Assembly: GCA_015232575.1 (NCBI GenBank)
Contig: JADFZL010000003.1
Span: forward strand, 64,001-128,000
Reading direction: 5' to 3'
From: Candidatus Rifleibacteriota bacterium
GTDB taxonomy: Bacteria; Muiribacteriota; Ozemobacteria; Ozemobacterales; Ozemobacteraceae
Length of the DNA stretch: 64,000 nucleotides
Below the pieces are notes generated by a model. That model saw only the letters and a program-made list of their open reading frames with translations, was not told the origin of the DNA and made no database searches. Of this stretch, positions 4,569 to 58,610 are shown in pieces (position 1 is the stretch's first letter; each line of letters begins with the position of its first letter). A program made the translations under genes and the position numbers.

Positions 4569-5150
4569 ATGAGTACAGATTCAATTAATGAAGACAAGAA
4601 TCTTATTCTGAAGATACTTGACGGTGAAGGCTCTTTGTACTCTGTTATTGTAACAAAGTATGAAAGGCTGGTTTATAGTTATCTTCTTCCGCAGCTGAGA
4701 ACATTGCAGGAAGTAGAAGATCTTTCTCAGGAAACATTTCTTAAGGCCTACAGGCATCTTGGATCATTTGATGTAGAGAAGAAATTTTCTTCATGGTTGA
4801 TGAAAATAGCCAAAAACCTGCTTATAGACTATAACAGGAAGAAATCATTACTACCAAATACAAATAATACAACAGAAAATTATGAAGATAGTTCGGAAAA
4901 ATTCAAAAACTCAGAAACTTTTTCCCCTTATCAACGTATAGAATTAAAAGAGGAGTTCAAGTCTACTTTCAAAGATATACTTTTGTTACCGGAAGAAATT
5001 CGTATTCCTTTCCTTCTAAGGGTTATCCAGGAACTTAGTTACGAAGAAATCGCTGAAATACTTGATATACCCCTGCAGACGGTGAAAAATCGTATTTTTA
5101 AAGCTCGACAGGCTTTAAAGGAAAAGAGGAAAAGCAATCATGAAATGTAA
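4569..5150 (+). CDS. ECF-type RNA polymerase sigma-70 factor
   Basis: Sigma region 2 ('ETFLKAYRHLGSFD') and region 4 helix-turn-helix ('QELSYEEIAEILDIPLQTVKNRIFKARQAL'). Confidence 0.85.
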   Translation: MSTDSINEDKNLILKILDGEGSLYSVIVTKYERLVYSYLLPQLRTLQEVEDLSQETFLKAYRHLGSFDVEKKFSSWLMKIAKNLLIDYNRKKSLLPNTNNTTENYEDSSEKFKNSETFSPYQRIELKEEFKSTFKDILLLPEEIRIPFLLRVIQELSYEEIAEILDIPLQTVKNRIFKARQALKEKRKSNHEM

Positions 5151-6156
5151 TCTTGATGAAAAGCTTTATCGATTTCATGATGGCGACCTTTCTTCACAGG
5201 AAGGTGCTGAATTTCAGAACCATCTCGGAAAATGCAATTTCTGCCAGAAAGAACTCTACGAAATCCAGGAACAGGAAAGACAGTTCAGGGAAGTTGTTGC
5301 GAGAGTTTTTCCCTCCGGGCAAATGGCTGACTCTGTCATGAGGCGCATAGCTCAGGAGATGCCGATGTTGTACCCAACACCCAGAAAGTCTTTTGACTGG
5401 TTCCAATGGTTTAAATTTCTGGTTCCAGCCATGGCGCTGGTTTTTGGAATGCTTGTTTTCAATAATTTATCTCAAAAACACGTATTTGCTGTGCCCAGGT
5501 CATTTATCTCGATAGAATCATTGAGAAATGACTGTCAATTGAATGGATCACATTTTTCCAAAGGTGATCAGAAAGTCTCTGAATTAAATAAAGAATTTGA
5601 TTTCGAGGGAATTCTTGAATTTGCAATAACCCGCGGAATCGCGAAAAGTCCTGATGCAAGCTGTTATGGCGATTTTGAATCTGTTGAGAAGCTTCAGAAA
5701 ATTACAATAGATGGAAATGGAAAATTTAAGCTTTTTTCTGATTCCCTGGTCTGGGTAAGCGGTGATGCTGAACTTGATTTCAAATTAACGAAACCAATCA
5801 TTGTCAAAGCTGGAAATGCTGATTTTGAAATTACCGGGACGAGGTTGAAAATTTCCGGATCTTCTGAAAATGATCTTTCTGTGACCCTTATTGAAGGTAC
5901 AGTGTTATGGACAGTTGCAAATGAAAAAAAATCTGGTATACTTATTAAAGGGATTCCTTTGAAAAGAAAGGGTGATTCATGGAGTTATAGTTTTACCAGC
6001 CCCTCTTCACAGCCTTCTTCTTTGAACTCGTCACCTTCGAATTTTCCTGAAACGCCCAAATATGAACCAGGGGAAATAACCGGCACATCTGTAAAAGATA
6101 ATCCATTTGAAGAAAATGATGTTGCACCAGATTTTAAAAACAAGGATATGAAATGA
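5140..6156 (+). CDS. anti-sigma factor (zf-HC2 type) with a transmembrane segment and an extracytoplasmic domain
   Basis: Start overlaps the sigma gene stop; N-terminal 'HLGKCNFCQKE' zinc-finger anti-sigma motif; central hydrophobic helix (FKFLVPAMALVFGMLVF). Confidence 0.6.
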   Translation: MKCNLDEKLYRFHDGDLSSQEGAEFQNHLGKCNFCQKELYEIQEQERQFREVVARVFPSGQMADSVMRRIAQEMPMLYPTPRKSFDWFQWFKFLVPAMALVFGMLVFNNLSQKHVFAVPRSFISIESLRNDCQLNGSHFSKGDQKVSELNKEFDFEGILEFAITRGIAKSPDASCYGDFESVEKLQKITIDGNGKFKLFSDSLVWVSGDAELDFKLTKPIIVKAGNADFEITGTRLKISGSSENDLSVTLIEGTVLWTVANEKKSGILIKGIPLKRKGDSWSYSFTSPSSQPSSLNSSPSNFPETPKYEPGEITGTSVKDNPFEENDVAPDFKNKDMK

Positions 6157-7842: not shown

Positions 7843-8017
7843 GTGCGTTCCTGAAATATGTAGTTTTTTGTAACTGATGTGCAGTCATTTCCCCCAAATA
7901 ATTGAGCAGTTACACTGTTTCTTTGAATATCTTCTTGACATTGTACAATAAAAGAGCTATAAGTATTAAGTTATGCTGTTTTTTTCCGACCTATTGTATG
8001 AGTGGTAAGTATTAATT

Positions 8018-8135
8018 ATGTATTGAGTATCGGTTTATTTAGTATCAGTAATTGTATATTGTTTTTCTGTTCTTTGTTTATCAGGTATTTAGTTTTAGAG
8101 TATCGGTGTTATAAGATCATAAGGAGTATTGAGTA
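8018..8135 (+). promoter_or_regulatory. AT-rich promoter region with direct repeats of (T/A)GAGTATCGGT (8023, 8096) and ATTGAGTATG (8123) upstream of the M14 peptidase gene
   Basis: Repeated decamers seen in sequence; AAGGAG RBS at 8114. Confidence 0.4.
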
Positions 8136-9601
8136 TGAAGAAAAGTCTGTACCGGTATTATTTTTCAGTATCTGTTTTTTCAGTTTTTATTATACTTTTT
8201 TCCTTGCCAGTTTCGGCAGAAAAAAGCCTCGTCCGATTCGACAATCTCACTCAGGACCAAATTGCTTTTTTTCATGAAAACGGCTTTGATGTCCCCAAAA
8301 CAGGCAGAGATTATGTTGAAGTTGTTGTTGATTATTCCGATGAATCGCTCAACGGAAGCAAATTACCAGGAAAAAGCAGTGTAATTATACCCGACCTTGA
8401 TGAATATGTTTCCAATATTTTGTCAAGTCAAACCAGAGAAAGAGCCTATTTCTCATTCGAAACTATGACCGCACGTCTCCAGGAGTGGTCAGAACAATAC
8501 AGCGAAATTGCATCGCTTTCTTCCATTGGCAAATCATGCGAAGGAAGAGACATCTGGGCGCTGAAAATCAGCGACAACCCTAAAGTTGACGAGAAAGAGC
8601 CATCTGCACTCATCGTTGGCGGTACACATGCCCGTGAGTGGATATCAGTTGAAGTTCCAATGGAGTCAATAAAAAGGCTTCTTGAAAGTTATGGAAAAGA
8701 TGAAAAACTCACCTCTCTTGTAAATGACAGGGAAATCTGGTTTGTTCCAATGCTTAATCCAGACGGACTTGTTTTTTCTCAGACAAAGAGTAAATACTGG
8801 CGAAAAAACCGAAGAAAAATTGATTCATCATCTGCTTATGGGGTCGATTTAAATCGCAACTACGGCTATAAATGGGGCGAATCTGGTGCAAGCACATCCC
8901 CGTCAGCAGACACTTACATGGGAACAGCTCCCTTTTCTGAACCTGAAACTTGTGCAATTAAAGCCCTTACAGCAAGAGAACATTTCCAGGCAAGTATTTC
9001 GTTCCACAGTTATTCTGAATTGATTTTATATCCATACAGTTACGCCAAAAATATTTCCTGCCCGGATAATACAACATTTGTTAAATTGTCAGGCGAGATG
9101 GCAAAATTTAATTCTTATACCCCTCAAAACAGTGCTGATCTTTATCCAGCTGCTGGTGAATCAGATGATTTTATATATTCAGAACACAAAACTCTTGCTT
9201 TTACTTTCGAGCTTGCTACAACTTTTATTCCTGCTGTTACCCAGATTGAAAACATCTGCAATCAAAATGTCCCGGCAGTTTTTCACCTCATCGAGAAAGC
9301 CGGAACTTATGCTCTTACCACACCAAGCGGAGATATAGATATTTGCAGAAATCTTGATTCAAAAACAGCTTTTCAGGCGCTTTGCGATGGAAAAGAGTTG
9401 TCTGAATCGTTGCCATTCGAATTGAAATATCTTTGCCAGGAAAGAATGAGTGTAATAGAAGACAGACTTGCCTCTCTTTCCGCTGATTCCTCTTCAGACT
9501 TCAGTGAATCGTTGCAGGCAGTCATTTCAGAATCTGCAGGCTTTGAAAGCCTCAAGAAAAAAATCTCAGACTCCAGGAAATTTGCATCATTACACAGATA
9601 A
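8129..9601 (+). CDS. secreted zinc carboxypeptidase, peptidase M14 family
   Basis: Signal peptide; M14 zinc-ligand motif 'GGTHAREWIS' (HxxE) and downstream 'SFHSYSELILYPY'. Confidence 0.8.
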   Translation: MSMKKSLYRYYFSVSVFSVFIILFSLPVSAEKSLVRFDNLTQDQIAFFHENGFDVPKTGRDYVEVVVDYSDESLNGSKLPGKSSVIIPDLDEYVSNILSSQTRERAYFSFETMTARLQEWSEQYSEIASLSSIGKSCEGRDIWALKISDNPKVDEKEPSALIVGGTHAREWISVEVPMESIKRLLESYGKDEKLTSLVNDREIWFVPMLNPDGLVFSQTKSKYWRKNRRKIDSSSAYGVDLNRNYGYKWGESGASTSPSADTYMGTAPFSEPETCAIKALTAREHFQASISFHSYSELILYPYSYAKNISCPDNTTFVKLSGEMAKFNSYTPQNSADLYPAAGESDDFIYSEHKTLAFTFELATTFIPAVTQIENICNQNVPAVFHLIEKAGTYALTTPSGDIDICRNLDSKTAFQALCDGKELSESLPFELKYLCQERMSVIEDRLASLSADSSSDFSESLQAVISESAGFESLKKKISDSRKFASLHR

Positions 9602-9646
9602 AGAAAAGGCTTCGTAAAACACCACTAATAGCTTTGCAGTGAAAGT

Positions 9647-9694
9647 GAAATCCTCTCTCAAATTATTATTTTGAGGGAGGATTTCATTTTTTTG
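9647..9694 (+). terminator. rho-independent terminator (GAAATCCTCTCTCAAA-loop-TTGAGGGAGGATTTC followed by T-run)
   Basis: 15-bp stem with one G-T wobble, T7 tract. Confidence 0.7.
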
Positions 9695-9811
9695 TCTTTT
9701 GTGATAAGCTGACGAAGTAATACGCTTCCCGAAAAGTTATTTGGTGTATTTCTACTGTGTGTATTATTATTTCGGGGTTGTTAGATATACTCAACGGGAG
9801 ATGATCAACAC

Positions 9812-11260
9812 ATGAAGAGTGTATTTTCAGAAAAACATTATCGTGATTTTCTGAAACCAAGGCGAGATCTATGGGAAGAGGTTTATTCTTCTCAGACAGA
9901 CCATAAGCGATGGAGCAGATACTATCACAAGCGCCTGGAATCAGTTTTTGCTTTTCTTGTTCCACCAGGGCAAAAAGTACTCGAGCTTGGATGTGGAGAG
10001 GGCGATTTATTAAATTCTGTCAGACCATCATTTGGTGTCGGAATTGATTTTTCTCAGAATGCAATAAACAAAGCAAAGAAAAAGCACCACAATCTTTCAT
10101 TTGTAGTTGCTAACGTTGAGCGTTTGCCTGTAAAAGGTACTTTTGATTATATCATCGTATCAGATATTCTTAACGACCTCTGGGATATAGAAAAACTCTT
10201 CAGAGCCTGTAGAAAGCTTTGTTCAAGAGATACAAGAATAATCATCAACTGCTACAGCAGGTTATGGCAGATTCCGCTTATGATTGCAAGAAAATTTGGA
10301 TTGGCCCAGCCGCTGATGAATCAGAACTGGGTTACATCAGAAGATGTTCAGAATCTTCTATACCTTTCAGAATTTGAAACAATTCGAACCTGGAGCGAAG
10401 TTCTCTGTCCTCTCGAAATGAATAAAGCCTCACATTTTTTAAATTCATTTCTTGTCAGAATGCCTTTTTTCAACCAGGGAGCTTTAACAAATTTTGTTAT
10501 TGCAAGACCCCATTTTTCATCAGAAATATCGAGTTGTGAGAAGCCTTCAGTTTCAATTCTTATTCCTGCACGAAATGAAGCTGGAAATATCCGCGAAATA
10601 CTTGAAAGAACTCCTAACCTTGGAAGCAGTACTGAAATCATTTTTGTTGAAGGAAATTCTACCGACGAGACATATTCAACTATTGAGAAGGAAATCAGCA
10701 ATTTTCCAGGTAGAAAAATTCTATTATTTAAACAAACCGGAAAGGGAAAGGGTGATGCTGTCAGACTTGGCTTCTCAAAAGCCTCCGGAGATATTCTAAT
10801 GATACTTGATGCCGATATGACGGTTGCTCCTGAAGACTTGCCAAGGTTCTATGAAGCACTTGTTTCTGGTAAAGGTGATTTTATCAATGGTATCAGGCTT
10901 GTTTATCCTATGGAAAACAATGCAATGAGATTTTTTAACCTTATCGGCAATAAATTTTTCAGCATGGCTTTTTCTGCGATATTAGGGCAGAACATCAAGG
11001 ATACGCTTTGTGGAACAAAGGTGCTTTGGCGAAAAGATTATGAAAAAATTTCATCAAATCGTTCATTCTTTGGCGATTTTGACCCATTTGGCGATTTTGA
11101 CTTGCTTTTTGGAGCGGCAAAATTGAATTTGAAAATTATTGACATGCCAATCAGATATAAAGAACGAAAATATGGTGAGACAAATATTGAGCGCTGGAAG
11201 CATGGTTGGATGCTGTTGCAGATGGTTATCTTTGCTGCACGTAAACTTAAATTCAGGTAA
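9812..11260 (+). CDS. bifunctional class-I SAM methyltransferase / family-2 glycosyltransferase (DPM1-like) fusion
   Basis: N-terminal methyltransferase motif 'VLELGCGEGDLL'; C-terminal GT2 motifs 'VSILIPARNEAGNI' and 'ILDADMTVAPEDL'. Confidence 0.7.
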   Translation: MKSVFSEKHYRDFLKPRRDLWEEVYSSQTDHKRWSRYYHKRLESVFAFLVPPGQKVLELGCGEGDLLNSVRPSFGVGIDFSQNAINKAKKKHHNLSFVVANVERLPVKGTFDYIIVSDILNDLWDIEKLFRACRKLCSRDTRIIINCYSRLWQIPLMIARKFGLAQPLMNQNWVTSEDVQNLLYLSEFETIRTWSEVLCPLEMNKASHFLNSFLVRMPFFNQGALTNFVIARPHFSSEISSCEKPSVSILIPARNEAGNIREILERTPNLGSSTEIIFVEGNSTDETYSTIEKEISNFPGRKILLFKQTGKGKGDAVRLGFSKASGDILMILDADMTVAPEDLPRFYEALVSGKGDFINGIRLVYPMENNAMRFFNLIGNKFFSMAFSAILGQNIKDTLCGTKVLWRKDYEKISSNRSFFGDFDPFGDFDLLFGAAKLNLKIIDMPIRYKERKYGETNIERWKHGWMLLQMVIFAARKLKFR

Positions 11261-11336
11261 AATTCAGGTAAACCTCAATTTACAATTGGTGAATTAATAT
11301 AGAGCAGTAAAGAGCAGTTTAAAAGAGGACAGAAAT

Positions 11337-12209
11337 TTGCGATCACCTCAAAAAAGTGCAGATACCAGGTCTCTTTCAACAGAATATTCCTTTATTCAGA
11401 AAGTGAAAGAATACCTGGAACATCCGCTTACACGCGGAAAATCGATTGACGATCCTTCCACTTCTGAGTTGCGCAAAGAAATTATCAAAAGTAAACCCTT
11501 TCTTTATTCGCTGTATCGTGAGTGGTACAAATTATTGATCAATAGCCTTCCTGAAATAAACGGTAAGATTCTTGAACTCGGTTCCGGGGGAGGGTTTTTG
11601 GCAGAATTGATTCCGGATTTGATTGCATCGGACATTATTTTTCTTAATAAACTGTCTCTTATATGTGATGCCAGGTCTCTTCCTTTTGTAGGTGATTCAT
11701 TTAAAGCAATTGTAATGGTAAATGTTCTTCATCATATACCATGTATTGATAGTTTTTTTAAATCAGCATCAAGAGTTTTAAAACGTGGTGGAAGAATAAT
11801 AATGATTGAGCCATGGTTGACAAAAACATCCAAATTGATATACAAAAACATGCATCATGAATTGTTTGATGAGAAGCAAAAAGCGTGGCAGCTTTCCACA
11901 GATTCACCGCTTTCTTCTGCAAATGGTGCTCTTCCATGGATAGTTCTGCAGAGAGATATAAGAAAGTTTGAAGCGCTTTTTTCTGAATTTAAAATATTAA
12001 AAATTCACAAGATGATGCCGCTTTCATATTTATTATCAGGTGGTGTATCAATGCGATCTCTTATTCCGGGCTTTTTATATTCTCCCATAAGATTTATTGA
12101 AAATATTCTTGAAAAGAATTTTACCAGCACTGGCATGTTTGCATTGGCAATACTGGAAAAGAACGCTGAGTCTGGCAAATTCGTTCAGCGAAATATTAGA
12201 AAACAATAA
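11337..12209 (+). CDS. class-I SAM-dependent methyltransferase
   Basis: Motif I 'ILELGSGGGFLAELIP' and motif 'IVMVNVLHHIP'. Confidence 0.6.
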   Translation: MRSPQKSADTRSLSTEYSFIQKVKEYLEHPLTRGKSIDDPSTSELRKEIIKSKPFLYSLYREWYKLLINSLPEINGKILELGSGGGFLAELIPDLIASDIIFLNKLSLICDARSLPFVGDSFKAIVMVNVLHHIPCIDSFFKSASRVLKRGGRIIMIEPWLTKTSKLIYKNMHHELFDEKQKAWQLSTDSPLSSANGALPWIVLQRDIRKFEALFSEFKILKIHKMMPLSYLLSGGVSMRSLIPGFLYSPIRFIENILEKNFTSTGMFALAILEKNAESGKFVQRNIRKQ

Positions 12210-12225
12210 AATTTAGAGAATAAAT

Positions 12226-13185
12226 ATGATTTTAGATAATTCTACAAATGATTTTGAATATCTCCGAATTTCTCTGACAGATCGATGTAATCTCAGATGT
12301 TTGTACTGTATGCCTCCTGGTGGTGTAAAGAAGATATCTCACTCAAGCATTATCAGTTACGAAGAAATTCTGAAAATTGTCAGAGCTTCTGTTAAAAATG
12401 GTGTTTTCAGAGTCAGAGTGACTGGTGGTGAGCCGCTGGTGCGAAAAGGTGTTGAGAATTTTATTTCACGATTACGTGAAATTCCGGAAATAAAAGACCT
12501 TTCGCTTACAACTAACGGAGTTTTCCTTATGGAGAAGGCATCTGATTTGGTATCATCAGGATTGATGAGAGTAAATATAAGCCTTGATTCGCTGAATCCT
12601 GATACGTATAAAAAGATTACCAGGTGTGGTGAATTGAGTGAAGTATTGATTGGAATATTCAGAGCTCTGGAAGTTGGTTTGAATCCGGTTAAAATTAATG
12701 TTGTACTTATTCCGGGAATGAATGATTCTGAGATCCTTGACTTTGCTGATTTTGCTTTCAAGAATTCTGTTCACGTTCGATTTATCGAAAAAATGCCTTT
12801 TGCCGGAAGCAATAAAAACGATTTTATAAGCCAATCTGAAATTATAAATACAATAAGTACCAAATATTTTCTTTTTCCTGAAAGCAATTATATTGGTGGT
12901 GGACCAGCCAAGTTGTTCTCCATCGAAAATGGCAGAGGGAAGATCGGCTTTATAAGTTCACATACTCAACCTTTCTGCAGCACATGCAAGAGATTGCGGC
13001 TTTCTGCAGAAGGTTTTCTCATGCCTTGTCTTGATGCTCGCTCTGGTGTTTTTACCAGAGGTAAAACAGAAGAAGAATTAACTGGAATTATCAGAGAACT
13101 TGGAATTCAGAAAAGATATCTGTCTAAAAAATGTGCAGAGTTTCATGATGCGGGATGCTTTTCTCTCTCATCAATTGGCGGTTAG
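12226..13185 (+). CDS. moaA: GTP 3',8-cyclase MoaA (radical SAM)
   Basis: 'YLRISLTDRCNLRCLYCMP' CxxxCxxC radical-SAM motif identical in layout to MoaA; C-terminal second-cluster motif 'FCSTCKRLRLSAEGFLMPCL'. Confidence 0.85.
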   Translation: MILDNSTNDFEYLRISLTDRCNLRCLYCMPPGGVKKISHSSIISYEEILKIVRASVKNGVFRVRVTGGEPLVRKGVENFISRLREIPEIKDLSLTTNGVFLMEKASDLVSSGLMRVNISLDSLNPDTYKKITRCGELSEVLIGIFRALEVGLNPVKINVVLIPGMNDSEILDFADFAFKNSVHVRFIEKMPFAGSNKNDFISQSEIINTISTKYFLFPESNYIGGGPAKLFSIENGRGKIGFISSHTQPFCSTCKRLRLSAEGFLMPCLDARSGVFTRGKTEEELTGIIRELGIQKRYLSKKCAEFHDAGCFSLSSIGG

Positions 13186-13204
13186 TTTTTACATGGAGAA
13201 AAAT

Positions 13205-14161
13205 ATGACTAATGACAAAACTGGTTTATATTCAGTTGGAATTGATCTTGGCGGTACCAAGATTGCTGTCGGTCTTTGTTCTGAAGGAATCATCAGAAAA
13301 AAAGTGCTTAAACCAACAAATGCTGAAAAAGGTCCTATCGAAGTCATTAAAGTTATGTCAGATGCCGTTAAAGAAGCATGTGAAGGAGTTCCGGCTGAAA
13401 AAATTTCCGGAGTTGGCGTTGGAGCAGCTGGTCAGATAGATGCTGTAACAGGTAAAGTGATATACGCCCCGAACTTAGGATGGGAAAATGTTCATCTGGC
13501 AGAAGTTCTGAAAAAAAATCTTTCCATGAATATTAAAGTAACGAATGATGTCAGAGCTGCTACCATTGCTGAATTATATTATGGCGCGGGAAAAGGCTTG
13601 ACTGATTTTCTTAATATTTTTGTCGGAACTGGCATTGGTTCAGGATTTGTAATTAATGGTAAAATTATTGAGGGAGTTACAAACACTGCCGGCGAAATTG
13701 GACATACTTGCCTTGACCCCGAAGGTCCACTTTGCGGATGTGGCAAGCAAGGCTGCTTCGAAGCTTTCTCATCTGGAAGGGCAATTGAAAATTTCGTTAA
13801 AAGCAAACTTTTGTATGGCTATAAAAGTGAAATAATGAAACTTGCCGATGAAAATCTGAATAAAGTTTCATGCAGAATTATCGGCCAGGCTGCCAGAAAT
13901 GGTGATTCTCTGGCACTTTCTTCGCTTGAAAGGGCTGGCATGTATATTGGACTTGTCATTGCAAACATACATACAATGTTGAATCCGCAAACGGTCATTC
14001 TGGGCGGTGGAGTAATGGGATTAAAGGAGTTCATCGTTCCGGCAATAGAAAAGGCTGTAGAGAAATTTGTGCTTCCGGTTTCGAAAAGAGACAATTTCTT
14101 TACTATGGCTCTCTGCGAAAATGATGCCGGAATTCTTGGCAGTGCTGCGCTCTTTATCTGA
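13205..14161 (+). CDS. ROK-family sugar kinase (glucokinase-like)
   Basis: 'VGIDLGGTKIAVGL' ATP-binding motif; ROK zinc motif 'CGCGKQGCFE'; likely start ATG 13205 (RBS GGAGAAA); the track ORF from 13100 overlaps moaA. Confidence 0.8.
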   Translation: MTNDKTGLYSVGIDLGGTKIAVGLCSEGIIRKKVLKPTNAEKGPIEVIKVMSDAVKEACEGVPAEKISGVGVGAAGQIDAVTGKVIYAPNLGWENVHLAEVLKKNLSMNIKVTNDVRAATIAELYYGAGKGLTDFLNIFVGTGIGSGFVINGKIIEGVTNTAGEIGHTCLDPEGPLCGCGKQGCFEAFSSGRAIENFVKSKLLYGYKSEIMKLADENLNKVSCRIIGQAARNGDSLALSSLERAGMYIGLVIANIHTMLNPQTVILGGGVMGLKEFIVPAIEKAVEKFVLPVSKRDNFFTMALCENDAGILGSAALFI

Positions 14162-14180
14162 CAGACATTCAGGAGCAATA

Positions 14181-15146
14181 ATGAAGCCAATAAGGCCCTG
14201 TATTTTTAATGGTTCAGCAGAAAAACTTCCAAATCCGTTCCTGCCATTGGAAGATGGCTTAAGGCTTATTTCTTTTCTTGTACAGACAGCACGAAATTTT
14301 CCTTCATTACTACTTGCTTTTTCTGCAAAAAAAGGTGCAAGATCTGCTTCATGGGAAATAGCTGAATTCTTTGCCCAGCTTGGTTTGAATGTTTTTATTT
14401 CCAAAAATCCAGTTCCAATAAGCGCTTTGTCACTTTCTCTTATTAAGAGAAATATTCCAATGGGTGTTTATATTGATTGTGATAAGAATGATAACTGGAC
14501 GATCTTTCCTATTGGCGTAAATGGTGGTCCGGCGCTTATTTCCTCAGATAATACTTATCCTCTGATCGAAAAACTTCCTTTCTCAGGCGTGGTAGGTGAA
14601 ACCGATCTTATCGAAGTTTATGTAAAGTCCCTTGAATGCTTGACTGATCTTTCATATATTACTGAATCGTATATAAAAGAACTGGTTTTCCCTTTTTCAG
14701 CAGTGATGGAAAAAATTAAGGAAAATGTTTGTTTTAAAAATCTTTCTTCCGATAATTTAAAAGGAATGACTGCTATTGTCAGCAATGATGGACAGATTCT
14801 TGAATTATTTCTTCCAAATGGAGAAAAAGTTTCTGACGAGACAATAATTAAAGTTCTTGCAAATTATCTAATCGGGGTTAGGGAAAGCCGCGGTACAGTT
14901 TTTATTTCCTCGAAAAATTCTGAGGATATTAAATTCAATGGATTATCAATTAAGAATGCAGAGATTCAAAGGGTGGGGGACGACACAGTAGAATTAGCCC
15001 ATAGAAGTGGCTACAGCGACCTTCTCATAGGTTGTTGTCCTCCCGGACATTTTATTCATCAAGGTCATACACCCTTTGGAGATGGCCTTTTAACTCTTTT
15101 TTATCTCCTTGAAGCCTGGGATTGGGAAGAATCGAATCTTCCATAA
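14181..15146 (+). CDS. hypothetical protein, possibly a degenerate alpha-D-phosphohexomutase-like protein
   Basis: RBS AGGAG before ATG 14181; weak resemblance to the PGM/PMM metal loop ('GVYIDCDKNDN' vs DGDGDR) with no intact TASHNP serine motif; function uncertain. Confidence 0.35.
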   Translation: MKPIRPCIFNGSAEKLPNPFLPLEDGLRLISFLVQTARNFPSLLLAFSAKKGARSASWEIAEFFAQLGLNVFISKNPVPISALSLSLIKRNIPMGVYIDCDKNDNWTIFPIGVNGGPALISSDNTYPLIEKLPFSGVVGETDLIEVYVKSLECLTDLSYITESYIKELVFPFSAVMEKIKENVCFKNLSSDNLKGMTAIVSNDGQILELFLPNGEKVSDETIIKVLANYLIGVRESRGTVFISSKNSEDIKFNGLSIKNAEIQRVGDDTVELAHRSGYSDLLIGCCPPGHFIHQGHTPFGDGLLTLFYLLEAWDWEESNLP

Positions 15147-15258: not shown

Positions 15259-16449
15259 ATGAAATCTCTTTCCCTGAAAGATGGTCGAACTGTCACTATA
15301 AAATCTGCAGGACATGAAGATATTGATCAGATAATGAAGCTTTATGATCGGGTATATTCGGGCAGTTACCCTTTAAAGGATGTCACAGATCCACAACAGA
15401 TAAAAAAAAGGATTGAAGACACCAATTATTTCTGGCCCCTTGCATATCATGGGAAGGATTTAATCGCTTCTGTACTTTTTACCGTTGATCAGGTTAACAA
15501 ACTTGGGAAAGTCTATGCTGCAGTTGTGAGAGACGATTTCCGCGGTCACGATGTCATGCATGAGGTTTCAACGCTTGGCATTGAAAGACTTACTAAAATA
15601 ACCAGATCCTGCGATGTTATATACGGAACCGCCCGAACAGTTTCACTTGCCCCACAGGTTATTCTTGAACATCTGGGTTTTCTTCCCATGGGTGTTTTTC
15701 CGAATGTCAGAAAAGTTCAGTCATTTGAAACTCATGGTCTTGAAATCTATTTCAGGGAAGATTCCCTGAAGCTTCGAAAAAAACAGCCCCAGCTTGTGCC
15801 AGAAGTCAGGGAATTTTATCACATAGTACAATCAATCATTCATCTTGAAGACTTTAAGGAGATAATCCTTCCAGTTTTTGACCCAAAGGATATGGGCAGT
15901 CCAATTAATTTTATTATAAATCATGACGAAGCTGACGTTCATCAGAAATTTGAATTATATCAAAACAAAGATTATATGGAAAAAGTTTTTTTTCCATTTG
16001 CAGAGCCAAATATGCTTTTTGTATCTGAAAATGGTGACGCAGAAATTTTTGTTAACCTATGTGAGACAGACGGCAATGGAACAATTTTAGGTTATAGAAT
16101 TCAAAACACCGATTTGAGAAGAGTTCTGTTGTGGTTTTGCGAGGCTGCTTCAAAAGAAAAAATGAGGTATCTTGAACTTCTTGTAAATGCTTACAAGCCA
16201 GAGCTTCAAAGAATTGCCCTAGATGCTAAATTTCTTCCATGTGCATATTTTCCGGCAGCAAAAATGAATGAAAACGGTGAGCGCGAAGATTACGTAGTAT
16301 TTTCAAGGTCGTTTGAAAGTCTTGATTTTATGGATATGAAACTTGGACAGACAAATCGCAGATTTCTTGATGCGTTTATGAAGTGCTGGTATGAAATGCT
16401 GCTGAGATGCCAACCCAGCTTTGATGGCGAGGAGTGGCGAATTGTCTGA
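15259..16449 (+). CDS. GNAT-like acyltransferase-domain protein with a ~250-aa C-terminal extension of unknown function
   Basis: N-terminus 'VTIKSAGHEDIDQIMKLYDRVY' typical of GNAT starts; end overlaps the downstream LuxE-like gene. Confidence 0.45.
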   Translation: MKSLSLKDGRTVTIKSAGHEDIDQIMKLYDRVYSGSYPLKDVTDPQQIKKRIEDTNYFWPLAYHGKDLIASVLFTVDQVNKLGKVYAAVVRDDFRGHDVMHEVSTLGIERLTKITRSCDVIYGTARTVSLAPQVILEHLGFLPMGVFPNVRKVQSFETHGLEIYFREDSLKLRKKQPQLVPEVREFYHIVQSIIHLEDFKEIILPVFDPKDMGSPINFIINHDEADVHQKFELYQNKDYMEKVFFPFAEPNMLFVSENGDAEIFVNLCETDGNGTILGYRIQNTDLRRVLLWFCEAASKEKMRYLELLVNAYKPELQRIALDAKFLPCAYFPAAKMNENGEREDYVVFSRSFESLDFMDMKLGQTNRRFLDAFMKCWYEMLLRCQPSFDGEEWRIV

Positions 16450-17593
16450 GGCAATTAAGCGTTTTCCCTTATCTGAAAAACTGTTCAGTAATCCCATGGC
16501 GTTTCAGCATGATTCGCTATCAGACATTCTTTTTGAAAATTCAATGAAAGAAGCGCTTATCTGGCATTACCTGAATTGTCGGGGTTTTGCTGCTTTCATG
16601 TCTATTCAGGGCTTTAATTCGCTTAAATCACTTGATTCAATAGATAAATGCGAGAAGATTCCACCGCTTTTTGTAAATGTATTTAAGGAATTCAGATTAA
16701 TTTCAATTCCCGAAGAAAAAATTAAACTTGAGTTGACATCATCTGGAACCGGAGGGAAAAAAAGCGCTGTTGTTCTTGATGAAATCTCATATAACAGAAT
16801 TCTGAAAGCTGTATCGGGAGTATTTTCAAGCCTTGGATTAAGAAATGACGAAGAAGAAGTAAACTATATCTGTTTCGCTTATGATCCGAAATATGCTGCA
16901 GACAAAGGAACAACTTTTTCTGATAAACAGCTTACTTATTTGACAAAACGAAAAGATGTGTATTACGCCATAAGATGGAATAAAGAAAAGTCTGATTTCG
17001 AATTCAACCCTGACCAGACTGTAAAAAAACTTTTAAAATTCTCTGTTGACGGTCCTGTCAGATTACTTGGTTTTCCGGCGTATTTGTGGCAGATATGTGA
17101 AATACTTGAAAAGAAGGGAATTCGCCTTCATTTAGGCGACCGCTCTTTTATAATTACAGGCGGTGGCTGGAAAGTTTTCAAAAACAGGGAAGTCCGCAAA
17201 GAAGTTTTCAAAGAAAAAATCGAAGAGATTCTTGGCATTCCACAAAAGAATATCCGTGACAGCTATGGACTTGTTGAACATGGAATACCTTATCTTGAGT
17301 GTGAGCACGGACGAATGCATGTTCCCATATATTCAAGAGCGCGGGTGGTTGATCCTGAGACTTTATTTCCGTTCCCCGATGGAACAGAGGGTTTGCTTCA
17401 TCTTATGACACCATTCCTGACAAGTTATCCTTCATTATCTGTTCTTACTACCGATAAAGCGATATTAGAAAATAATTGTCCATGCGGTCTGGCTGGAAAA
17501 ACTCTAAAAATAACTGGTAGAGCTGGTTTGTCGAAAAATAAGGGGTGTGCAATTTCAGCACTGGAATATATAAAAAAATATGACGGAAAATAA
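16421..17593 (+). CDS. LuxE-family acyl-protein synthetase-like adenylating enzyme
   Basis: 'ELTSSGTGGKKSAVVLDE' P-loop-like adenylation motif and overall LuxE/PaaK-like organisation; overlaps neighbours on both sides (operonic). Confidence 0.65.
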   Translation: MMARSGELSEAIKRFPLSEKLFSNPMAFQHDSLSDILFENSMKEALIWHYLNCRGFAAFMSIQGFNSLKSLDSIDKCEKIPPLFVNVFKEFRLISIPEEKIKLELTSSGTGGKKSAVVLDEISYNRILKAVSGVFSSLGLRNDEEEVNYICFAYDPKYAADKGTTFSDKQLTYLTKRKDVYYAIRWNKEKSDFEFNPDQTVKKLLKFSVDGPVRLLGFPAYLWQICEILEKKGIRLHLGDRSFIITGGGWKVFKNREVRKEVFKEKIEEILGIPQKNIRDSYGLVEHGIPYLECEHGRMHVPIYSRARVVDPETLFPFPDGTEGLLHLMTPFLTSYPSLSVLTTDKAILENNCPCGLAGKTLKITGRAGLSKNKGCAISALEYIKKYDGK

Positions 17594-20186
17594 TAAATAC
17601 TACATTTTTGGTGAGTCTGTACCAGTTGAAAATCTTGATTTCAGATTGATTTTATCTTTTATTAAAAAAGCGTCAGATCTTAAAAACATTTTTTCTCAAA
17701 CTCCGATTGAGCGAATTCTTGATGTTTTGGAAAAAGTTTCAAAAATATGGTCTGATAAAGAGCATCCCTTTGTAAAAAAAGCCCTTCAACTACTTCCGGA
17801 AATGATTGGTTTCAGCCGGGAAATGGTATTGCTGGGAATTGAAGCTGTCTCAGAAATATGTTGCAGAACAAATCTTGAAAAACGGCTGGATTGCGAACTT
17901 GGCAACAGAAAATACACAGACTCATGGGTGTATGATGAAAAAAGAGGCATTGAATTAAAAACGGTTCCGCATGGAGTTCTGCTCCATATCTCAGCGGGAA
18001 ATGTCTTTGTTGGTGCTATTGACAGTCTCATTTCCGGAATTGTCACTAAAAATGTGAATATTCTTAAAATGAGCAGTGCTGACACTCTTTTTCCTGTTCT
18101 TTTTCTTGAAAGCATTCGGGAATCAGACCCTGAAAATATTATCTGGCCATTTCAATGTCTTATCAACTGGCGTGGTGGTGACTCTGATTTTGAAGAAATT
18201 CTTTTTGATTCTTCTCTGACAGTTGTTTTCTGGGGTGGCAAAGAAGCGCTTAAATCGATAAGAGCGAAGTGTGGTGAAAATATCAGATTTGTTGAAAATG
18301 GTCCAAGATTTTCTTTTGCTGTTGGAGATGGAAATTACCTGAAATATTTTTCTACCGATTCTTTTATAAGGGGCCTTGCAAAAGACATTTCAACCTGGGA
18401 TCAGCATGCCTGTTCATCACCTCATCTTGTTTATCTGTTAAACTCAGATGAAAAAACAACAGATAGTTTTATTGAAAATCTTTTCAATGAAATGAAATTC
18501 TTTTCAGAAAATCTTCCTCAGGGAAAACTTGACTTTGACCAGAAGGTTGAGATTCGCAAAATTCGCTCAATTGCTGAGATGAGTTCGGTATATGATTCAA
18601 CAAAGCTTTTCTGTCCGGATGATTTCTCTTTTTCAATTATACGTGAGCCGAAAAAGGAATTCAGAATTTCAAGTCTGAACAGAGTCATTTATGTTAAAAA
18701 CCTTGATTCTGCAGCCGAATTGAAAGAATTTATTTTTCCTTTATCTGCATATCTTCAGACTGTCGGAATATGTCTTTCCCCTGAATTACGTCACGAAGTT
18801 ACAGAAATTCTGGAAAAGCTTGGAGTAAAGCGTTTCACCGAATGGGGTGGGATGTCATCAGGAAAAACGGGAGCTCCTCATGAAGGTTCTTTCTTTCTTA
18901 CAAAATTGGTTGATTTCATTGTAAGGGAGCCTTCTGATTTTAACAGCTATAAACTCGAAGATTTATTTCGTGAGTTAAAAAAGTCGCCGTATTATGCAAA
19001 AATATTGAATGAAATACCGCCTGGTTTGCCGGTTCACGAAGTATTATCGAGATTTCCCGTAATGACAAGAGATATCTTTTATCGAATTTCTCCACCGACA
19101 TCCACCGAAATATTAACTGGACCGCTTGCCGACGCCTATGTCTTTGCCTCTGGCGGTACAACAGGAACTCCGAAATATGCATTTTATTCTAACCAGGAAT
19201 TTCTCTTCACTGCCCAGAAACAGGCTTTTATTTTTTCAAAAGCTGGAATGGAAAGCACTGATAGAACGGCAAATCTTTTTCTGGCAGGGAATCTCTGGAT
19301 GAGCTACACGATAGTTAATCGTGCCATTGAGCTTATAGGATGCCTGAATTTGCCAGTAGCTGCAAATTCAAGCATTGAAAACATTTTCCAATATCTGGAA
19401 TCTCTCAAAGCTTCTGTAGTTGTAGGTTTGCCATCAATGATTGTGCGGCTGGCAGAAGAGGCAAAAAAGAGAAATATATCTCTGAAAATAAAGAAAATAT
19501 TTTATGCTGGTGAACACATGCATCCGGCAATGAAAGAGTTTTTGAAAGAAGTCTTTCAAGCTGAAATAATAAATTCAGCAGGCTATGCCTGTGTTGACAC
19601 CGGGGCAATTGGATATCAATGCCGCTTCCTCACCGGATCTCAACACCATGTTCTTGATGACTTGCAGTATGTTGAAATTTTAGATGAAAATCAGAAACCT
19701 GTTGGCGTTGATTTCCCAGGTGAGATTATTGTTACAAATCTTTATCGTCAGTTAATGCCGATTGTGAGGTATAAGACCGGAGACCTTGGAAAATGGATTG
19801 AAAACACAGGCTGTCAATGTGGCTGTGTCGGAAGAACTTTTGAACTTCTCGGACGATGTGATGATCTTATGGTTATCGGAGGGATAACGCTTCTGCCGGG
19901 CGATGTTGCGAAAGTATTGGCACCCTTCCCGGAAGCACTTTGTTTTCAGATTTCAGCCAGAAAAAATAATCAGAAAGATGTTCTTATTCTTAAAATTGAA
20001 TCAGAAAAATATATTTCAGAAAAACTGATTATTCAGTCCATGCACAATAATTCGTTTAAGTTGAAAGAAGCAATTGATGAGAATTGGCTTGAAATTGACA
20101 TTCAAATGTTAAAACCCGGCTCAATTGAGCGCAATTCAAGAACGGGTAAAGTTCGCCAGGTGATTGACGATAGAAGTAAAGTGTGA
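17580..20186 (+). CDS. fusion protein: LuxC-family acyl-CoA reductase (N-terminal) + PaaK/LuxE-like adenylate-forming domain (C-terminal)
   Basis: N-terminal half has the LuxC-like 'TWDQHACSSPHLVYL' catalytic-Cys motif; C-terminal half has 'VFASGGTTGTPKYAFY' (AMP-binding SGGTTGxPK) and a cysteine cluster 'CQCGC'. Confidence 0.7.
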   Translation: MTENNKYYIFGESVPVENLDFRLILSFIKKASDLKNIFSQTPIERILDVLEKVSKIWSDKEHPFVKKALQLLPEMIGFSREMVLLGIEAVSEICCRTNLEKRLDCELGNRKYTDSWVYDEKRGIELKTVPHGVLLHISAGNVFVGAIDSLISGIVTKNVNILKMSSADTLFPVLFLESIRESDPENIIWPFQCLINWRGGDSDFEEILFDSSLTVVFWGGKEALKSIRAKCGENIRFVENGPRFSFAVGDGNYLKYFSTDSFIRGLAKDISTWDQHACSSPHLVYLLNSDEKTTDSFIENLFNEMKFFSENLPQGKLDFDQKVEIRKIRSIAEMSSVYDSTKLFCPDDFSFSIIREPKKEFRISSLNRVIYVKNLDSAAELKEFIFPLSAYLQTVGICLSPELRHEVTEILEKLGVKRFTEWGGMSSGKTGAPHEGSFFLTKLVDFIVREPSDFNSYKLEDLFRELKKSPYYAKILNEIPPGLPVHEVLSRFPVMTRDIFYRISPPTSTEILTGPLADAYVFASGGTTGTPKYAFYSNQEFLFTAQKQAFIFSKAGMESTDRTANLFLAGNLWMSYTIVNRAIELIGCLNLPVAANSSIENIFQYLESLKASVVVGLPSMIVRLAEEAKKRNISLKIKKIFYAGEHMHPAMKEFLKEVFQAEIINSAGYACVDTGAIGYQCRFLTGSQHHVLDDLQYVEILDENQKPVGVDFPGEIIVTNLYRQLMPIVRYKTGDLGKWIENTGCQCGCVGRTFELLGRCDDLMVIGGITLLPGDVAKVLAPFPEALCFQISARKNNQKDVLILKIESEKYISEKLIIQSMHNNSFKLKEAIDENWLEIDIQMLKPGSIERNSRTGKVRQVIDDRSKV

Positions 20187-20270
20187 TTTTTAAAATTTAT
20201 TGTTGCAAAGTATTGAGTTCTATGCGTATAATTCTTGTTAAATAAACCGAAACCAACCGGAGGAAAGCTG

Positions 20271-20723
20271 ATGCAACTGGTGGAATATTTCAAGGAAAAC
20301 TTGATCCTTCTTGATTTTGCTGCAAAAAATAAGGACGAAGCGCTTGAAGCAATGGTCAAAACGTTTGAGGCAGCGGGCGGCGTTGAAGATGTCAATGGAT
20401 TGCGAACTGCATTAATTGAACGAGAAAAACTGGGCACGACCGGAATTGGCGGAGGTATTGCGATTCCTCATGCCAGATGTGCTGCAGTTAAGGAAATAAT
20501 TGTTGGTTTCTTTCGATCCAAGGAAGGAATCCAATTTCAGGCAATAGATAACTTGCCGGTTAACATGATATTTTTGCTGGTTGCTCCAATTGCATCTGGC
20601 GGAGCATATTTGAAACTGCTTGCAAAAGTTTCACGACTTTTCCGATCTGATGAATTCAGAAATTCACTTATGGAAGCCAAAACACCGGCAGAAGTGATGG
20701 AAATTATCAAGCAGAGCGAGTAA
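20271..20723 (+). CDS. PTS EIIA (fructose/nitrogen-regulatory PtsN-type) domain protein, stand-alone
   Basis: 'GIGGGIAIPHARC' active-site His motif of PTS IIA-2; likely start ATG 20271 after GGAGGAAAG. Confidence 0.75.
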   Translation: MQLVEYFKENLILLDFAAKNKDEALEAMVKTFEAAGGVEDVNGLRTALIEREKLGTTGIGGGIAIPHARCAAVKEIIVGFFRSKEGIQFQAIDNLPVNMIFLLVAPIASGGAYLKLLAKVSRLFRSDEFRNSLMEAKTPAEVMEIIKQSE

Positions 20724-29172: not shown

Positions 29173-30297
29173 ATGAAAAGAAGCGTTTCCTTTAAACTGT
29201 TGGTTTGTTTTTTTCTGGTCATTTCGTTCATGGCAGGTGCTGAACCCAGTGCTTTTGTTAATGATCCACGCGATTTACAATTGATTGATTTGGCTGGAGT
29301 CGCCAAATATCTTGAAAAAGACCTTGATCTCGACAAGGGCATTGTTGATCTTATCGGCAAGGAAGTAATTAACAGCAAGTTCAGACAGGCTGGAATTCCT
29401 GATCCTGCAAAAGAAAGCCTGAGCTATGGAATCGTAGCGCGTGAAGGTTCCACAGAAAATCTAAGTTTAGTTTTCATTCTCAAGGGAAACGTTGACCAGG
29501 CAAAATTTCTGAAATTTGCAGAAAAGCGCTATCAGAAATATTTTGAAACACTTAAATCTCAGAATATTATTGATAAAGAGAAATATTCCTGTACTATCAA
29601 TATTGGCGAGAAAAGTGCGAGACTTTTTCCATTTGCTTTCAGAAATAGTGAGGCAGTCGTATTAAGCTTCAATGATTATACGCTCATTGCAACAGTCCCC
29701 CAGGGCGATTATTCTATTTTAAATGATACAATTGCCGTTCTTGAAGGGAAGGTTCAGAAAAATTCAAAGCAACCTGAGCGTTTTGCATTCCTTGCAGCTT
29801 TTTCACCAATTCCACAGGAACGTGAAGAGATTCTCAATTTCGAAAACAGATATGAAGGATTTGCAGCTCGTACAAAAAAAAGATTTTCAAAAATTATTAA
29901 TCCACAGAAATTTGAAGACACCGTTTCACATGAAAATCTCGAAAAGAATCTGAAATCAGCTTTGTCGAAAATTGAGCGTTTCTCTTATGAAGTTTCATCA
30001 AGCCGCAAGGGTGAAGGCTTTGCTTATGAAATTAACCTTCTTTTCAAGTGCTCAGAAAAAAAACAAGCGTCAAAACTTCGCGAAATGTTTCTGGAATGGC
30101 TGCTTAATAACTCTGAAAAGAATGTTTCCACCCAGGATCTTGCTTCATTACGCAAGAATAAAGTTCTTGTACAGGATAACACATGCATATATCAAATTCG
30201 TCTTGGTTCATCAGACGAAGAGCAGTGGCAGTTCTCATCAACTCTCATTTCACTCATGTTTCAGGACAGAAGATTTCACAGTATTTTCAAGGGATAG
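29173..30297 (+). CDS. hypothetical secreted/lipoprotein-like protein
   Basis: RBS GGAGGGATTGG before ATG; signal peptide 'LLVCFFLVISFMAGA'. Confidence 0.5.
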   Translation: MKRSVSFKLLVCFFLVISFMAGAEPSAFVNDPRDLQLIDLAGVAKYLEKDLDLDKGIVDLIGKEVINSKFRQAGIPDPAKESLSYGIVAREGSTENLSLVFILKGNVDQAKFLKFAEKRYQKYFETLKSQNIIDKEKYSCTINIGEKSARLFPFAFRNSEAVVLSFNDYTLIATVPQGDYSILNDTIAVLEGKVQKNSKQPERFAFLAAFSPIPQEREEILNFENRYEGFAARTKKRFSKIINPQKFEDTVSHENLEKNLKSALSKIERFSYEVSSSRKGEGFAYEINLLFKCSEKKQASKLREMFLEWLLNNSEKNVSTQDLASLRKNKVLVQDNTCIYQIRLGSSDEEQWQFSSTLISLMFQDRRFHSIFKG

Positions 30298-37711: not shown

Positions 37712-37812
37712 TTAAATAATTTATCAATAATACTGCAGTCATGATATTTTGACAATTATCAGTTATTATGCGAAAATTGTCACCGTTAAATTCATCCACA
37801 GGAGACCAAATT

Positions 37813-46431: not shown

Positions 46432-46454
46432 ATTTTTATCGCCAGGTAGAACAG

Positions 46455-47243: not shown

Positions 47244-47253
47244 GGAGCAGATA

Positions 47254-49597: not shown

Positions 49598-49618
49598 TAT
49601 ATTTTTCTGGAGAGAGAA

Positions 49619-58606: not shown

Positions 58607-58610
58607 ATAC

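Follow-up and report, generated by a model that had tools for sequence, protein, structure and literature searches.

The closest described system is the LuxC-LuxE fatty acid reductase of the lux operon (LuxCDABE). In the LuxC-LuxE complex (7XC6), PpLuxE has the residue pair K238/R355 and the acyl-acceptor C364 in the motif TRxxKGCxLS. Mutation of C296, Q402, or H442 of PpLuxC (paper numbering) abolishes activity, and LuxC takes acyl-LuxE or acyl-CoA (PMC9157457). LuxC is the sole characterized member of its sequence cluster (bioRxiv 10.1101/2025.08.11.669332). Outside bioluminescence, LuxC and LuxE are almost without characterized relatives. Here we describe a three-gene operon in a 64,000-nucleotide stretch of DNA (the window) from Candidatus Rifleibacteriota bacterium (GCA_015232575.1, contig JADFZL010000003.1, positions 64,001 to 128,000). 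It encodes a double-GNAT acyltransferase (GNAT-CTD), a LuxE-family acyl-protein synthetase, and a fusion of a LuxC-family thioester reductase with a PaaK-type adenylate-forming domain. We propose that the operon encodes a carrier-protein-independent route that activates, N-acylates, and reduces its substrate, is built on a LuxE-to-LuxC thioester relay, and yields a small aldehyde. We give this reading a probability of roughly 0.4.

The features of the operon are listed below by position in the window.

15259-16449, plus strand: double-GNAT acyltransferase (GNAT-CTD), 396 aa, from the AlphaFold model and profile comparison
Residues ~1-165 of the 396-aa protein: GNAT N-terminal domain
Residues ~215-351 of the 396-aa protein: second GNAT-like domain
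15538-15558, plus strand: GNAT motif FRGHDVM, conserved in the family
15697-15741, plus strand: GNAT motif FPNVRKVQSFETHGL, conserved in the family
16231-16257, plus strand: GNAT motif FLPCAYFPA, conserved in the family
16421-17593, plus strand: LuxE-family acyl-protein synthetase, 390 aa (PF04443)
16736-16762, plus strand: LuxE P-loop TSSGTGGKK
17159-17173, plus strand: LuxE GGGWK with lysine K251, which aligns to PpLuxE K238
17513-17527, plus strand: LuxE TGRAG with arginine R367, which aligns to PpLuxE R355
17534-17557, plus strand: LuxE C-terminal acyl-acceptor motif KNKGCAIS with C376, which aligns to PpLuxE C364
17580-20186, plus strand: fusion of LuxC-family thioester reductase and PaaK-type adenylate-forming domain, 868 aa (PF05893, PF00501, PF14535)
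17700-18911, plus strand: LuxC domain, fusion residues 41-444 (PF05893)
17991-18026, plus strand: LuxC nucleotide-binding-region motif SAGNVFVGAIDS
18402-18422, plus strand: LuxC catalytic C278 in QHACSSP
Within 18750-18767, plus strand: LuxC Q393
Within 18873-18887, plus strand: LuxC H434
18954-20174, plus strand: PaaK-type adenylate-forming domain, fusion residues 459-865
19149-19175, plus strand: PaaK-type P-loop SGGTTGTPK
20139-20153, plus strand: PaaK-type A10 lysine K857 in RTGKV

The three open reading frames (ORFs) overlap by 29 nt (first and second) and 14 nt (second and third). They form one translationally coupled operon. A GAGGA Shine-Dalgarno sequence lies ~8 nt 5' of the ATG of the GNAT gene, and the GC content of the window is ~38%. 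The 868-aa and 396-aa proteins have 100% identity to NCBI entries of a Candidatus Riflebacteria metagenome-assembled genome; an exact look-up of the fusion protein returned no record. The motifs that the preliminary description had quoted from the sequence were located at LuxE residues 105-114 (LTSSGTGGKK) and fusion residues 275-281 (QHACSSP) and 524-532 (SGGTTGTPK). Its domain calls and its catalytic cysteine were correct, as domain assignment returned PF04443, PF05893, and PF00501/PF14535.

The operon shares PF04443 and PF05893 with the LuxC-LuxE reductase, and neither has a carrier protein. It also shares the LuxE P-loop, Lys/Arg pair, and C-terminal KGC cysteine and the LuxC Cys, Gln, and His. 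The same chemistry is expected, from acid to acyl-AMP, acyl-S-LuxE, acyl-S-LuxC, and aldehyde. Unlike the lux operon, it does not contain luxA, luxB, or luxD, and its LuxC carries an extra C-terminal PaaK-type domain. Its obligatory partner is a double-GNAT protein, whereas the lux operon has the alpha/beta-hydrolase LuxD. The distal residues of the hydrophobic cleft are not kept, the equivalog cut-offs are far off, and the carriers are anaerobes of many phyla and not Vibrionaceae. In Pfam scans, none of the window ORFs of at least 230 aa matched a luciferase (PF00296) or a LuxD-type transferase, so the absence of luxAB reported earlier holds. Neither luxAB nor luxD was found in the related loci. 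The fused extra ligase, the obligatory double-GNAT protein, and the lack of LuxD, LuxAB, or a carrier domain set the module apart from LuxCE reductases and carboxylic acid reductases, which it otherwise resembles in its working.

Per-component profile hidden Markov models were scanned against all ORFs of 90 sources (the window and 89 loci). The 84 nonredundant loci that carry the fusion were the basis of the trio count. The trio was complete in 68 of the 84, across many phyla, with the LuxE and GNAT-CTD genes adjoining the fusion gene. The three genes do act as one module, as first suggested. Of the 16 incomplete loci, 14 are cut by a contig end within ~2.5 kb. The long ORFs, the strong profile matches, and the recurrence in other genomes exclude a chance origin of the trio. 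The fusion had been called unusual. It is instead a conserved family, with relatives in 177 of 185,579 species-representative genomes by an alignment-based scan and 163 matches in a word-indexed protein search.

The LuxE-family protein matches PF04443 with 174.6 bits (E 3.9e-51, cut-off 24.9) over profile positions 24-385 of 391. It matches 7xc6_E by phmmer with an E of 4e-38. It contains the P-loop and the Lys/Arg pair expected for adenylation. It does not contain the ANL C-terminal subdomain, and its sequence ends ...TGRAGLSKNKGCAISALEYIKKYDGK, which carries C376. Among the LuxE orthologues, the P-loop is kept in 77 of 77 and the C-terminal cysteine (K-x-x-G-C) in 76 of 77, the exception being L009. 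The protein is 35% identical to the Hippea orthologue over its full length. It scores 143.7 bits on the NCBIfam LuxE equivalog NF052244, which has a cut-off of 550. Judged by these matches, the first adenylase does belong to the LuxE family.

The LuxC domain of the fusion matches PF05893 with 253.3 bits (E 5.1e-75, cut-off 21), and the fusion matches 7xc6_A by phmmer with an E of 7e-35. C278, Q393, and H434 align to PpLuxC C296, Q402, and H442. They are invariant in an alignment of 21 fusion-family sequences spanning several phyla. The N-terminal half has a Foldseek template modeling (TM) score of 0.80 to 7xc6_A and ~0.65 to generic aldehyde dehydrogenases (ALDHs). The NCBIfam LuxC equivalog NF052251 has a cut-off of 750 bits, and the fusion reaches 137.6; the window protein is fused to a 410-aa adenylating domain and is not a stand-alone protein of ~480 aa. 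The conserved Cys-to-Cys pair, a natural triple fusion described below, and the near-obligate co-occurrence of the genes together firmly indicate a LuxE-to-LuxC relay without a carrier protein.

The C-terminal half of the fusion encodes PF00501 and PF14535 over residues 519-865. It has the fold, the P-loop (A3), and the A10 lysine of the PaaK-type ANL branch. In the family alignment, SGGxxGxPK and the A10 lysine (TGK857) are invariant. The fusion matches 4r1l by phmmer with an E of 1e-30. By Foldseek, its C-terminal half has a TM score of ~0.8 to BT_0428, PaaK1, ClxA, AjiA1, NatL2, and 2-hydroxyisobutyryl-CoA ligase (HCL), with 4r1m, 2y27, and 9s45 among the structures matched. No solved chain in the structure search spans both halves. 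The fused domain shares the fold, P-loop, C-x-C-G motif, and A10 lysine of PaaK-family ligases (PaaK1/2, BT_0428, ClxA, AjiA1/NatL2, and HCL). It is a close paralogue of amp430, a free-standing ligase of a longer form of the cassette; amp430 and a second ligase of that form, unk450, also fall in the PaaK-like group. It differs from the PaaK-family ligases in that it is fused to a reductase, scores below every curated cut-off, and has no aromatic-catabolic or benzoxazole context. The NCBIfam models for PaaK, DVU_1553, FlxY, and F390 synthetase score 64 to 124 bits on the fusion, all far below their cut-offs. The solved relatives (PaaK1, ClxA, AjiA1, NatL2, and HCL) use small aryl or short-chain acids. 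NatL2 and ClxA form ester or amide bonds straight from the adenylate.

These results bear on the reading of the fusion as a generic aldehyde dehydrogenase and of the adenylases as phenylacetate-CoA ligases of aromatic degradation. Annotation pipelines (JGI and NCBI) give the relatives such generic names ("phenylacetate-CoA ligase" and "aldehyde dehydrogenase family protein"), and some relatives also match PF00171. The window fusion has no PF00171 match beside its PF05893 match, and LuxC is the best structural match of its N-terminal half. The fusion scores 99.9 bits on the PaaK equivalog TIGR02155 (cut-off 646) and 124.2 bits on NF041878 (cut-off 700). Neither the window nor the related loci contain paa or ring-cleavage genes. 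This reading, which the preliminary description had named as its own possible undoing, is effectively refuted.

At the superfamily or Pfam level, the trio proteins belong to the LuxE, LuxC, PaaK-type ANL, and GNAT groups. Because the equivalog cut-offs are missed widely, neither the luminescence enzymes nor PaaK are their orthologues.

The preliminary description likened the module to a fatty-acid reductase complex in which the GNAT could replace LuxD. On this reading, long-chain fatty aldehydes or alcohols would be made for use in lipids, waxes, or ether lipids, and the GNAT would supply or transfer the fatty acyl group. The myxobacterial ether-lipid enzyme ElbD has a similar logic of activation, reduction, and acyl transfer. 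Every LuxE and LuxC catalytic residue is kept, and the characterized LuxE and LuxC, the only characterized members, both act on myristate (PMC9157457; bioRxiv 10.1101/2025.08.11.669332). An efflux-type MFS protein of the Hippea cassette also matches the LplT/Aas lysophospholipid system weakly (26 to 61 bits). However, the best matches of the cassette MFS proteins are EntS/Mef-type (DHA3) efflux pumps (109 to 206 bits), and relatives of the module link the GNAT to such an MFS. Conservation with the module does not extend to luxD or to any thioesterase, acyl carrier protein (ACP), or fatty-acid gene. The second adenylase is of the PaaK type, and its solved relatives act on small acids. The LuxE and LuxC scores (144 versus 550 and 138 versus 750) are also far from the equivalogs. 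In a sequence alignment to PpLuxC, the residues of the hydrophobic cleft for the C14 chain are mostly replaced (W111 by A89, M114 by E92, and S166 by G145), with L107 kept as L85. The W111 and M114 columns vary across the 21-sequence alignment. The changed distal residues are a weak hint that the acyl pocket may not be the C14 tunnel. Fatty aldehyde or alcohol synthesis is possible for the LuxE/LuxC part; as an account of the whole operon we consider it unlikely, and the fatty-acid substrate first put forward is not upheld.

The first protein of the operon has the GNAT fold. Its AlphaFold model has a predicted local distance difference test score (pLDDT) of 91 and a predicted TM score (pTM) of 0.89. 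Orthologues match PF00583, and no Pfam model exists for the second GNAT-like domain. The GNAT-CTD family contains 675 cluster representatives. The weak NCBIfam matches of the GNAT proteins are all amino-acid N-acetyltransferases (ablB, 1e-6; PRK07922, 8e-4). Direct BLASTP between the window and Hippea proteins was marginal (E 0.012), and the relationship was settled by profile-profile comparison. The window protein matches the HATPase_c_2::GNAT proteins of the long cassette by hhalign with 96% probability (E 3e-9, 309 columns), and the two types are homologous across both domains. A more distant member of the family, P0351 (550 aa), has a cyclic-nucleotide-binding domain at residues 420-503. 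Its architecture recalls cAMP-regulated protein acetyltransferases.

The loci are of two types. The short type (46 loci) has the order GNAT-CTD, LuxE, LuxC::PaaK and is the type of the window. Its hosts are Riflebacteria/Ozemobacteraceae, Xenobia/Eremiobacterota/Vulcanimicrobiota, Armatimonadota, Chloroflexota, Wallbacteria, UBP9, some Burkholderiales metagenome-assembled genomes (MAGs), and Selenomonadaceae. The long type (22 loci) adds an RsbW-like HATPase_c_2 domain on the GNAT N terminus, an EntS/DHA3-like MFS pump, amp430, and unk450. The unk450 protein is a divergent PaaK-like ligase (hhalign 98.7%, E 2e-16). Hosts of the long type include Hippea/Desulfurellales, Rhodopseudomonas, Desulfofustis, Bacteroidales, Acidobacteria, and Ignavibacteria. 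A flank search found no ACP, precursor peptide, or conserved small ORF adjoining the short operons. Short-type operons ~48% identical to that of the window and typical of Riflebacteria were seen in Avigastranaerophilus, Bacteroidales, and Erysipelotrichia MAGs (L017, L018, and L019). These contigs may be misbinned or laterally transferred.

Natural fusions tie the parts of the module together (LuxE::LuxC::PaaK, MFS::GNAT, and HATPase_c_2::GNAT). In an Armatimonadetes MAG (L042, 7069-11013), LuxE::LuxC::PaaK is a single ORF of 1,314 aa, with the short-type GNAT gene (gnatS) just upstream and overlapping it. P0266 and P0278 are MFS::GNAT-CTD fusions of ~800 aa. In L091 (357-9370), an MFS::GNAT-CTD gene directly follows luxE and luxC::paaK, and the genes overlap. 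Because an MFS::GNAT fusion occurs within the module and the long type encodes an EntS-like pump, the GNAT would be expected to act on a transported small molecule. L090 also contains an MFS permease fused to GNAT-CTD (8001-10412). L091 carries, in addition, a further GNAT-CTD paralogue, of the long type, and an amp430 gene with a frameshift. Both GNAT types can thus share one locus.

STAS was the sole recurrent small ORF near the modules and lies within 700 bp in 10 long loci. Long loci listed with an RsbV-like STAS gene at less than 700 bp are L002, L047, L058, L063, L066, L070, L071, L088, and L089. Counted by type, STAS is near 7 of 26 long and 3 of 48 short loci and SpoIIE near 8 of 26 long and 6 of 48 short loci, a moderate enrichment. 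The RsbW-like GNAT domain with STAS and SpoIIE looks like a partner-switching circuit with an enzyme, and not a sigma factor, as its output. STAS-bearing long loci often have a SpoIIE-type phosphatase and stand-alone HATPase_c_2 genes close by.

A regulatory role for the GNAT was also considered. It would be a Pat/AcuA-type lysine acetyltransferase that silences the neighboring adenylases by acetylating their catalytic lysine, and LuxE and LuxC::PaaK alone would turn the acid to aldehyde. Pat/AcuA enzymes target AMP-forming ligases and often combine a sensor domain with a GNAT. They are likewise genetically coupled to adenylate-forming enzymes, and the long-type GNAT likewise has an N-terminal regulatory-type domain. 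The RsbW-like domain, the STAS genes with SpoIIE nearby, the cyclic-nucleotide-binding domain of P0351, and the A10 lysine retained in the PaaK-type domain all fit such a regulator. In contrast to Pat/AcuA, the module GNAT is a tandem with a conserved second domain and is sometimes fused to an MFS permease, which fits a metabolite enzyme and not a protein modifier. A sensor domain is missing from the window copy. Since LuxE is without a C-terminal subdomain, it offers such an enzyme no A10 lysine. In the fusion, the sequence around the A10 lysine (ERNSRTGKVRQ) only partly fits the published Pat recognition motif. A regulator would usually be coupled less tightly than the GNAT, which co-occurs in 68 of 70 informative loci. 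We judge this role to be quite improbable.

In the route that we favor, LuxE would adenylate a carboxylic acid with ATP and shift the acyl group onto its own C376, as the conserved residues suggest. The flexible LuxE tail would hand the acyl group to C278 of LuxC, and NAD(P)H would reduce the thioester to the aldehyde. The fused PaaK-type domain may activate a second carboxylate as an acyl-adenylate or CoA thioester. This carboxylate is probably small (aryl, short-chain, or amino-acid-derived). The double-GNAT may N-acylate an amine on the same metabolite, using that acyl donor or acetyl-CoA, which would either supply the acid for LuxE or cap the product. These last two steps are less certain than the first two. 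Overall, the route would yield a small N-acylated aldehyde, or an imine or alcohol derived from it, and not a luciferase substrate. If each domain is used once, the ligase would make the acyl donor, the GNAT the N-acyl (amino) acid, LuxE the thioester, and LuxC the N-acyl (amino) aldehyde. The scheme parallels the logic of ArgA/ArgB/ArgC, in which the amine is protected and the carboxylate is activated and reduced to an aldehyde. In the long type, the two extra PaaK-like ligases may add units, and the EntS-like pump, sometimes fused to the GNAT, may export the product. The RsbW-like GNAT domain and the nearby STAS and SpoIIE genes would give partner-switching control.

Carboxylic acid reductases (CARs) and the terminal reductase domains of nonribosomal peptide synthetases (NRPSs) do the same job. 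They activate a free acid with ATP and reduce the thioester to the aldehyde with NAD(P)H in one polypeptide or complex. The module differs in that it has no phosphopantetheinyl carrier, and a protein cysteine would hold the acyl group. Its reductase has the ALDH/LuxC fold and not that of a short-chain dehydrogenase/reductase, and its adenylases are PaaK/LuxE-type. In Pfam searches, the three proteins matched neither PP-binding nor NAD_binding_4.

Several points weigh against the proposed route. What the PaaK-type domain does and in which order the steps run are guesswork. With LuxE at hand, it is not evident why reduction should call for a second adenylase. A pathway that ends in an aldehyde would be unusual, and the surroundings of the module contain no conserved tailoring enzyme. 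GNAT motif A, which binds the CoA pyrophosphate, reads R-G-H-D-V-M in the window versus the canonical R/Q-x-x-G-x-G/A. RG[QH]D[VIL] is present in ~31 of 48 short-type GNATs, and the long type varies at position 4. Because the motif is atypical and variable, a CoA thioester is only a possible donor. The AlphaFold model of the fusion has a pLDDT of 86, but its pTM of 0.65 suggests that the inter-domain geometry is not confidently predicted. The two informative loci with an incomplete trio, L053 and L082, have room but no nearby GNAT gene. Literature searches of the available library found no publication on the cassette or on any family member.

A wider proposal is tentative, and on the whole we find it doubtful. 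In it, the trio would be the minimal core of an unrecognized carrier-free assembly of small molecules. Ligases would add blocks, the pump-linked double-GNAT would N-acylate, and the relay would release an exported N-acyl (amino) aldehyde or cyclic imine that may serve as a signal or enzyme inhibitor. In many lineages, RsbW/STAS/SpoIIE would gate the assembly at the acyltransferase and not via a sigma factor.

The genes upstream of the trio in the window, together with a phosphoglucomutase used for comparison, are as follows.

9812-14161, plus strand: four-gene run upstream of the trio, with an S-adenosylmethionine (SAM)-methyltransferase::glycosyltransferase family 2 (GT2) fusion, a second methyltransferase, MoaA, and a ROK-family kinase
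14067-15146, plus strand: 359-aa ORF, with a 112-nt gap before the trio
37768-39237: four-domain phosphoglucomutase

The methyltransferase::GT2 fusion resembles AglJ/dolichyl-phosphate-hexose-transferase. MoaA passes the TIGR02666 cut-off (315 versus 284 bits) and has no other moa genes beside it. The run of methyltransferase, GT2, and ROK genes is an odd setting for MoaA. The 359-aa ORF had been taken for a degenerate phosphohexomutase. Searches of Pfam, NCBIfam, PADLOC, and PDB gave no match for it, and it is not significantly similar to the real phosphoglucomutase. Its identity with unk450 of the long cassette was rejected on comparison. With the TTG as its start, the ORF would share 95 nt with the 3' end of the ROK gene.

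The closest relative of the module, L006 (58% identity), has flanks entirely different from those of the window, as do the other genomes examined. Flanks in other genomes include flagellar genes, XerC, HslUV, sigma factors, and tRNA synthetases. When flanking ORFs were clustered, only SpoIIE-type phosphatases recurred across phyla. The other recurrent flanks were spurious antisense ORFs and Ozemobacteraceae synteny (XerC, HslV, flagellar rod, adenylate cyclase, and M50 peptidase). The module thus neighbors MoaA, the ROK kinase, the methyltransferase/GT2 genes, and the 359-aa ORF only by accident. The sugar-linked acyl product at which the first reading hinted is unsupported because moaA, ROK, and the 359-aa ORF do not accompany the module in L006 or in any other genome examined.

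A related possibility is that a sugar of a surface glycan is decorated with an unusual acyl group, which the module would make. The upstream run of the window would suit this. The V. cholerae O1 tetronate genes rfbK-O (RfbN) presumably resemble the module as well. In the Aeromonas group II flagellin glycosylation islands, an ACP, a ketoreductase, an AMP-ligase, luxE, and luxC lie beside glycosyltransferases (PMC7874193). These islands likewise use LuxE/LuxC without luminescence, for an acyl substituent, with their function only inferred. Unlike the module, which has no conserved glycan context, the islands contain ACP, ketoreductase, and glycosyltransferase genes and have neither the double-GNAT nor LuxC::PaaK. 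The flanks differ in L006-L009 and 80 survey loci, where no glycosyltransferase or sugar gene recurs, and no ACP adjoins the operons. The conserved extras are ligases, an efflux pump, and partner-switching parts. A role in glycan decoration is very unlikely.

A PtsN-like phosphotransferase system EIIA-2 gene (20235-20723, plus strand) begins 48 nt past the stop codon of the module. In L006, a PtsN-like gene is also just downstream, in the opposite orientation (13399-13851, minus strand). HtrA, sigma-E/anti-sigma, HD-domain, and M14 peptidase genes are common to the window and L006 but rearranged. PtsN and its companions are local synteny and were not seen in more distant carriers.

Scans of the window for promoters (18 found versus 14.4 expected) and terminators (5 found versus 4.5 expected) were at chance. 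Rfam gave no match in the window and only rRNA genes in six related loci, and no riboswitch was found. One subthreshold suhB match upstream was at chance level. PADLOC gave no match to a defense system. Elsewhere, the window contains a butyrate-type fermentation cluster (45280-50539, plus strand). It encodes an acyl-CoA dehydrogenase, EtfB, EtfA with an N-terminal ferredoxin domain, a second acyl-CoA dehydrogenase, and a phosphate butyryl/acetyltransferase. A block at 56688-61081 (plus strand) encodes a GT2, a radical SAM protein, a B12-binding radical SAM protein, and a GT2. A further B12-binding radical SAM gene lies apart from it (30377-31744, minus strand). Four ORFs have no Pfam match at an E of ≤1e-5 (2138-4477, 5140-6156, 29173-30297, and 40750-41796), and a fifth has none at an E of ≤1e-8 (61298-62692). 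These five range from 338 to 779 aa.

The gene set reuses the LuxE-to-LuxC cysteine relay in nonluminous, mostly anaerobic bacteria of broad phylogenetic range. Cultured carriers, all of the long cassette, are Hippea alviniae, Desulfofustis limnaeus, and Rhodopseudomonas palustris (strain JSC-3b)/pseudopalustris. If the proposed route is true, the module would be a compact carrier-free path from acid to aldehyde, relevant to biocatalysis. It would also be a rare instance of partner-switching control over an enzyme, and it would point to an unrecognized family of exported metabolites.

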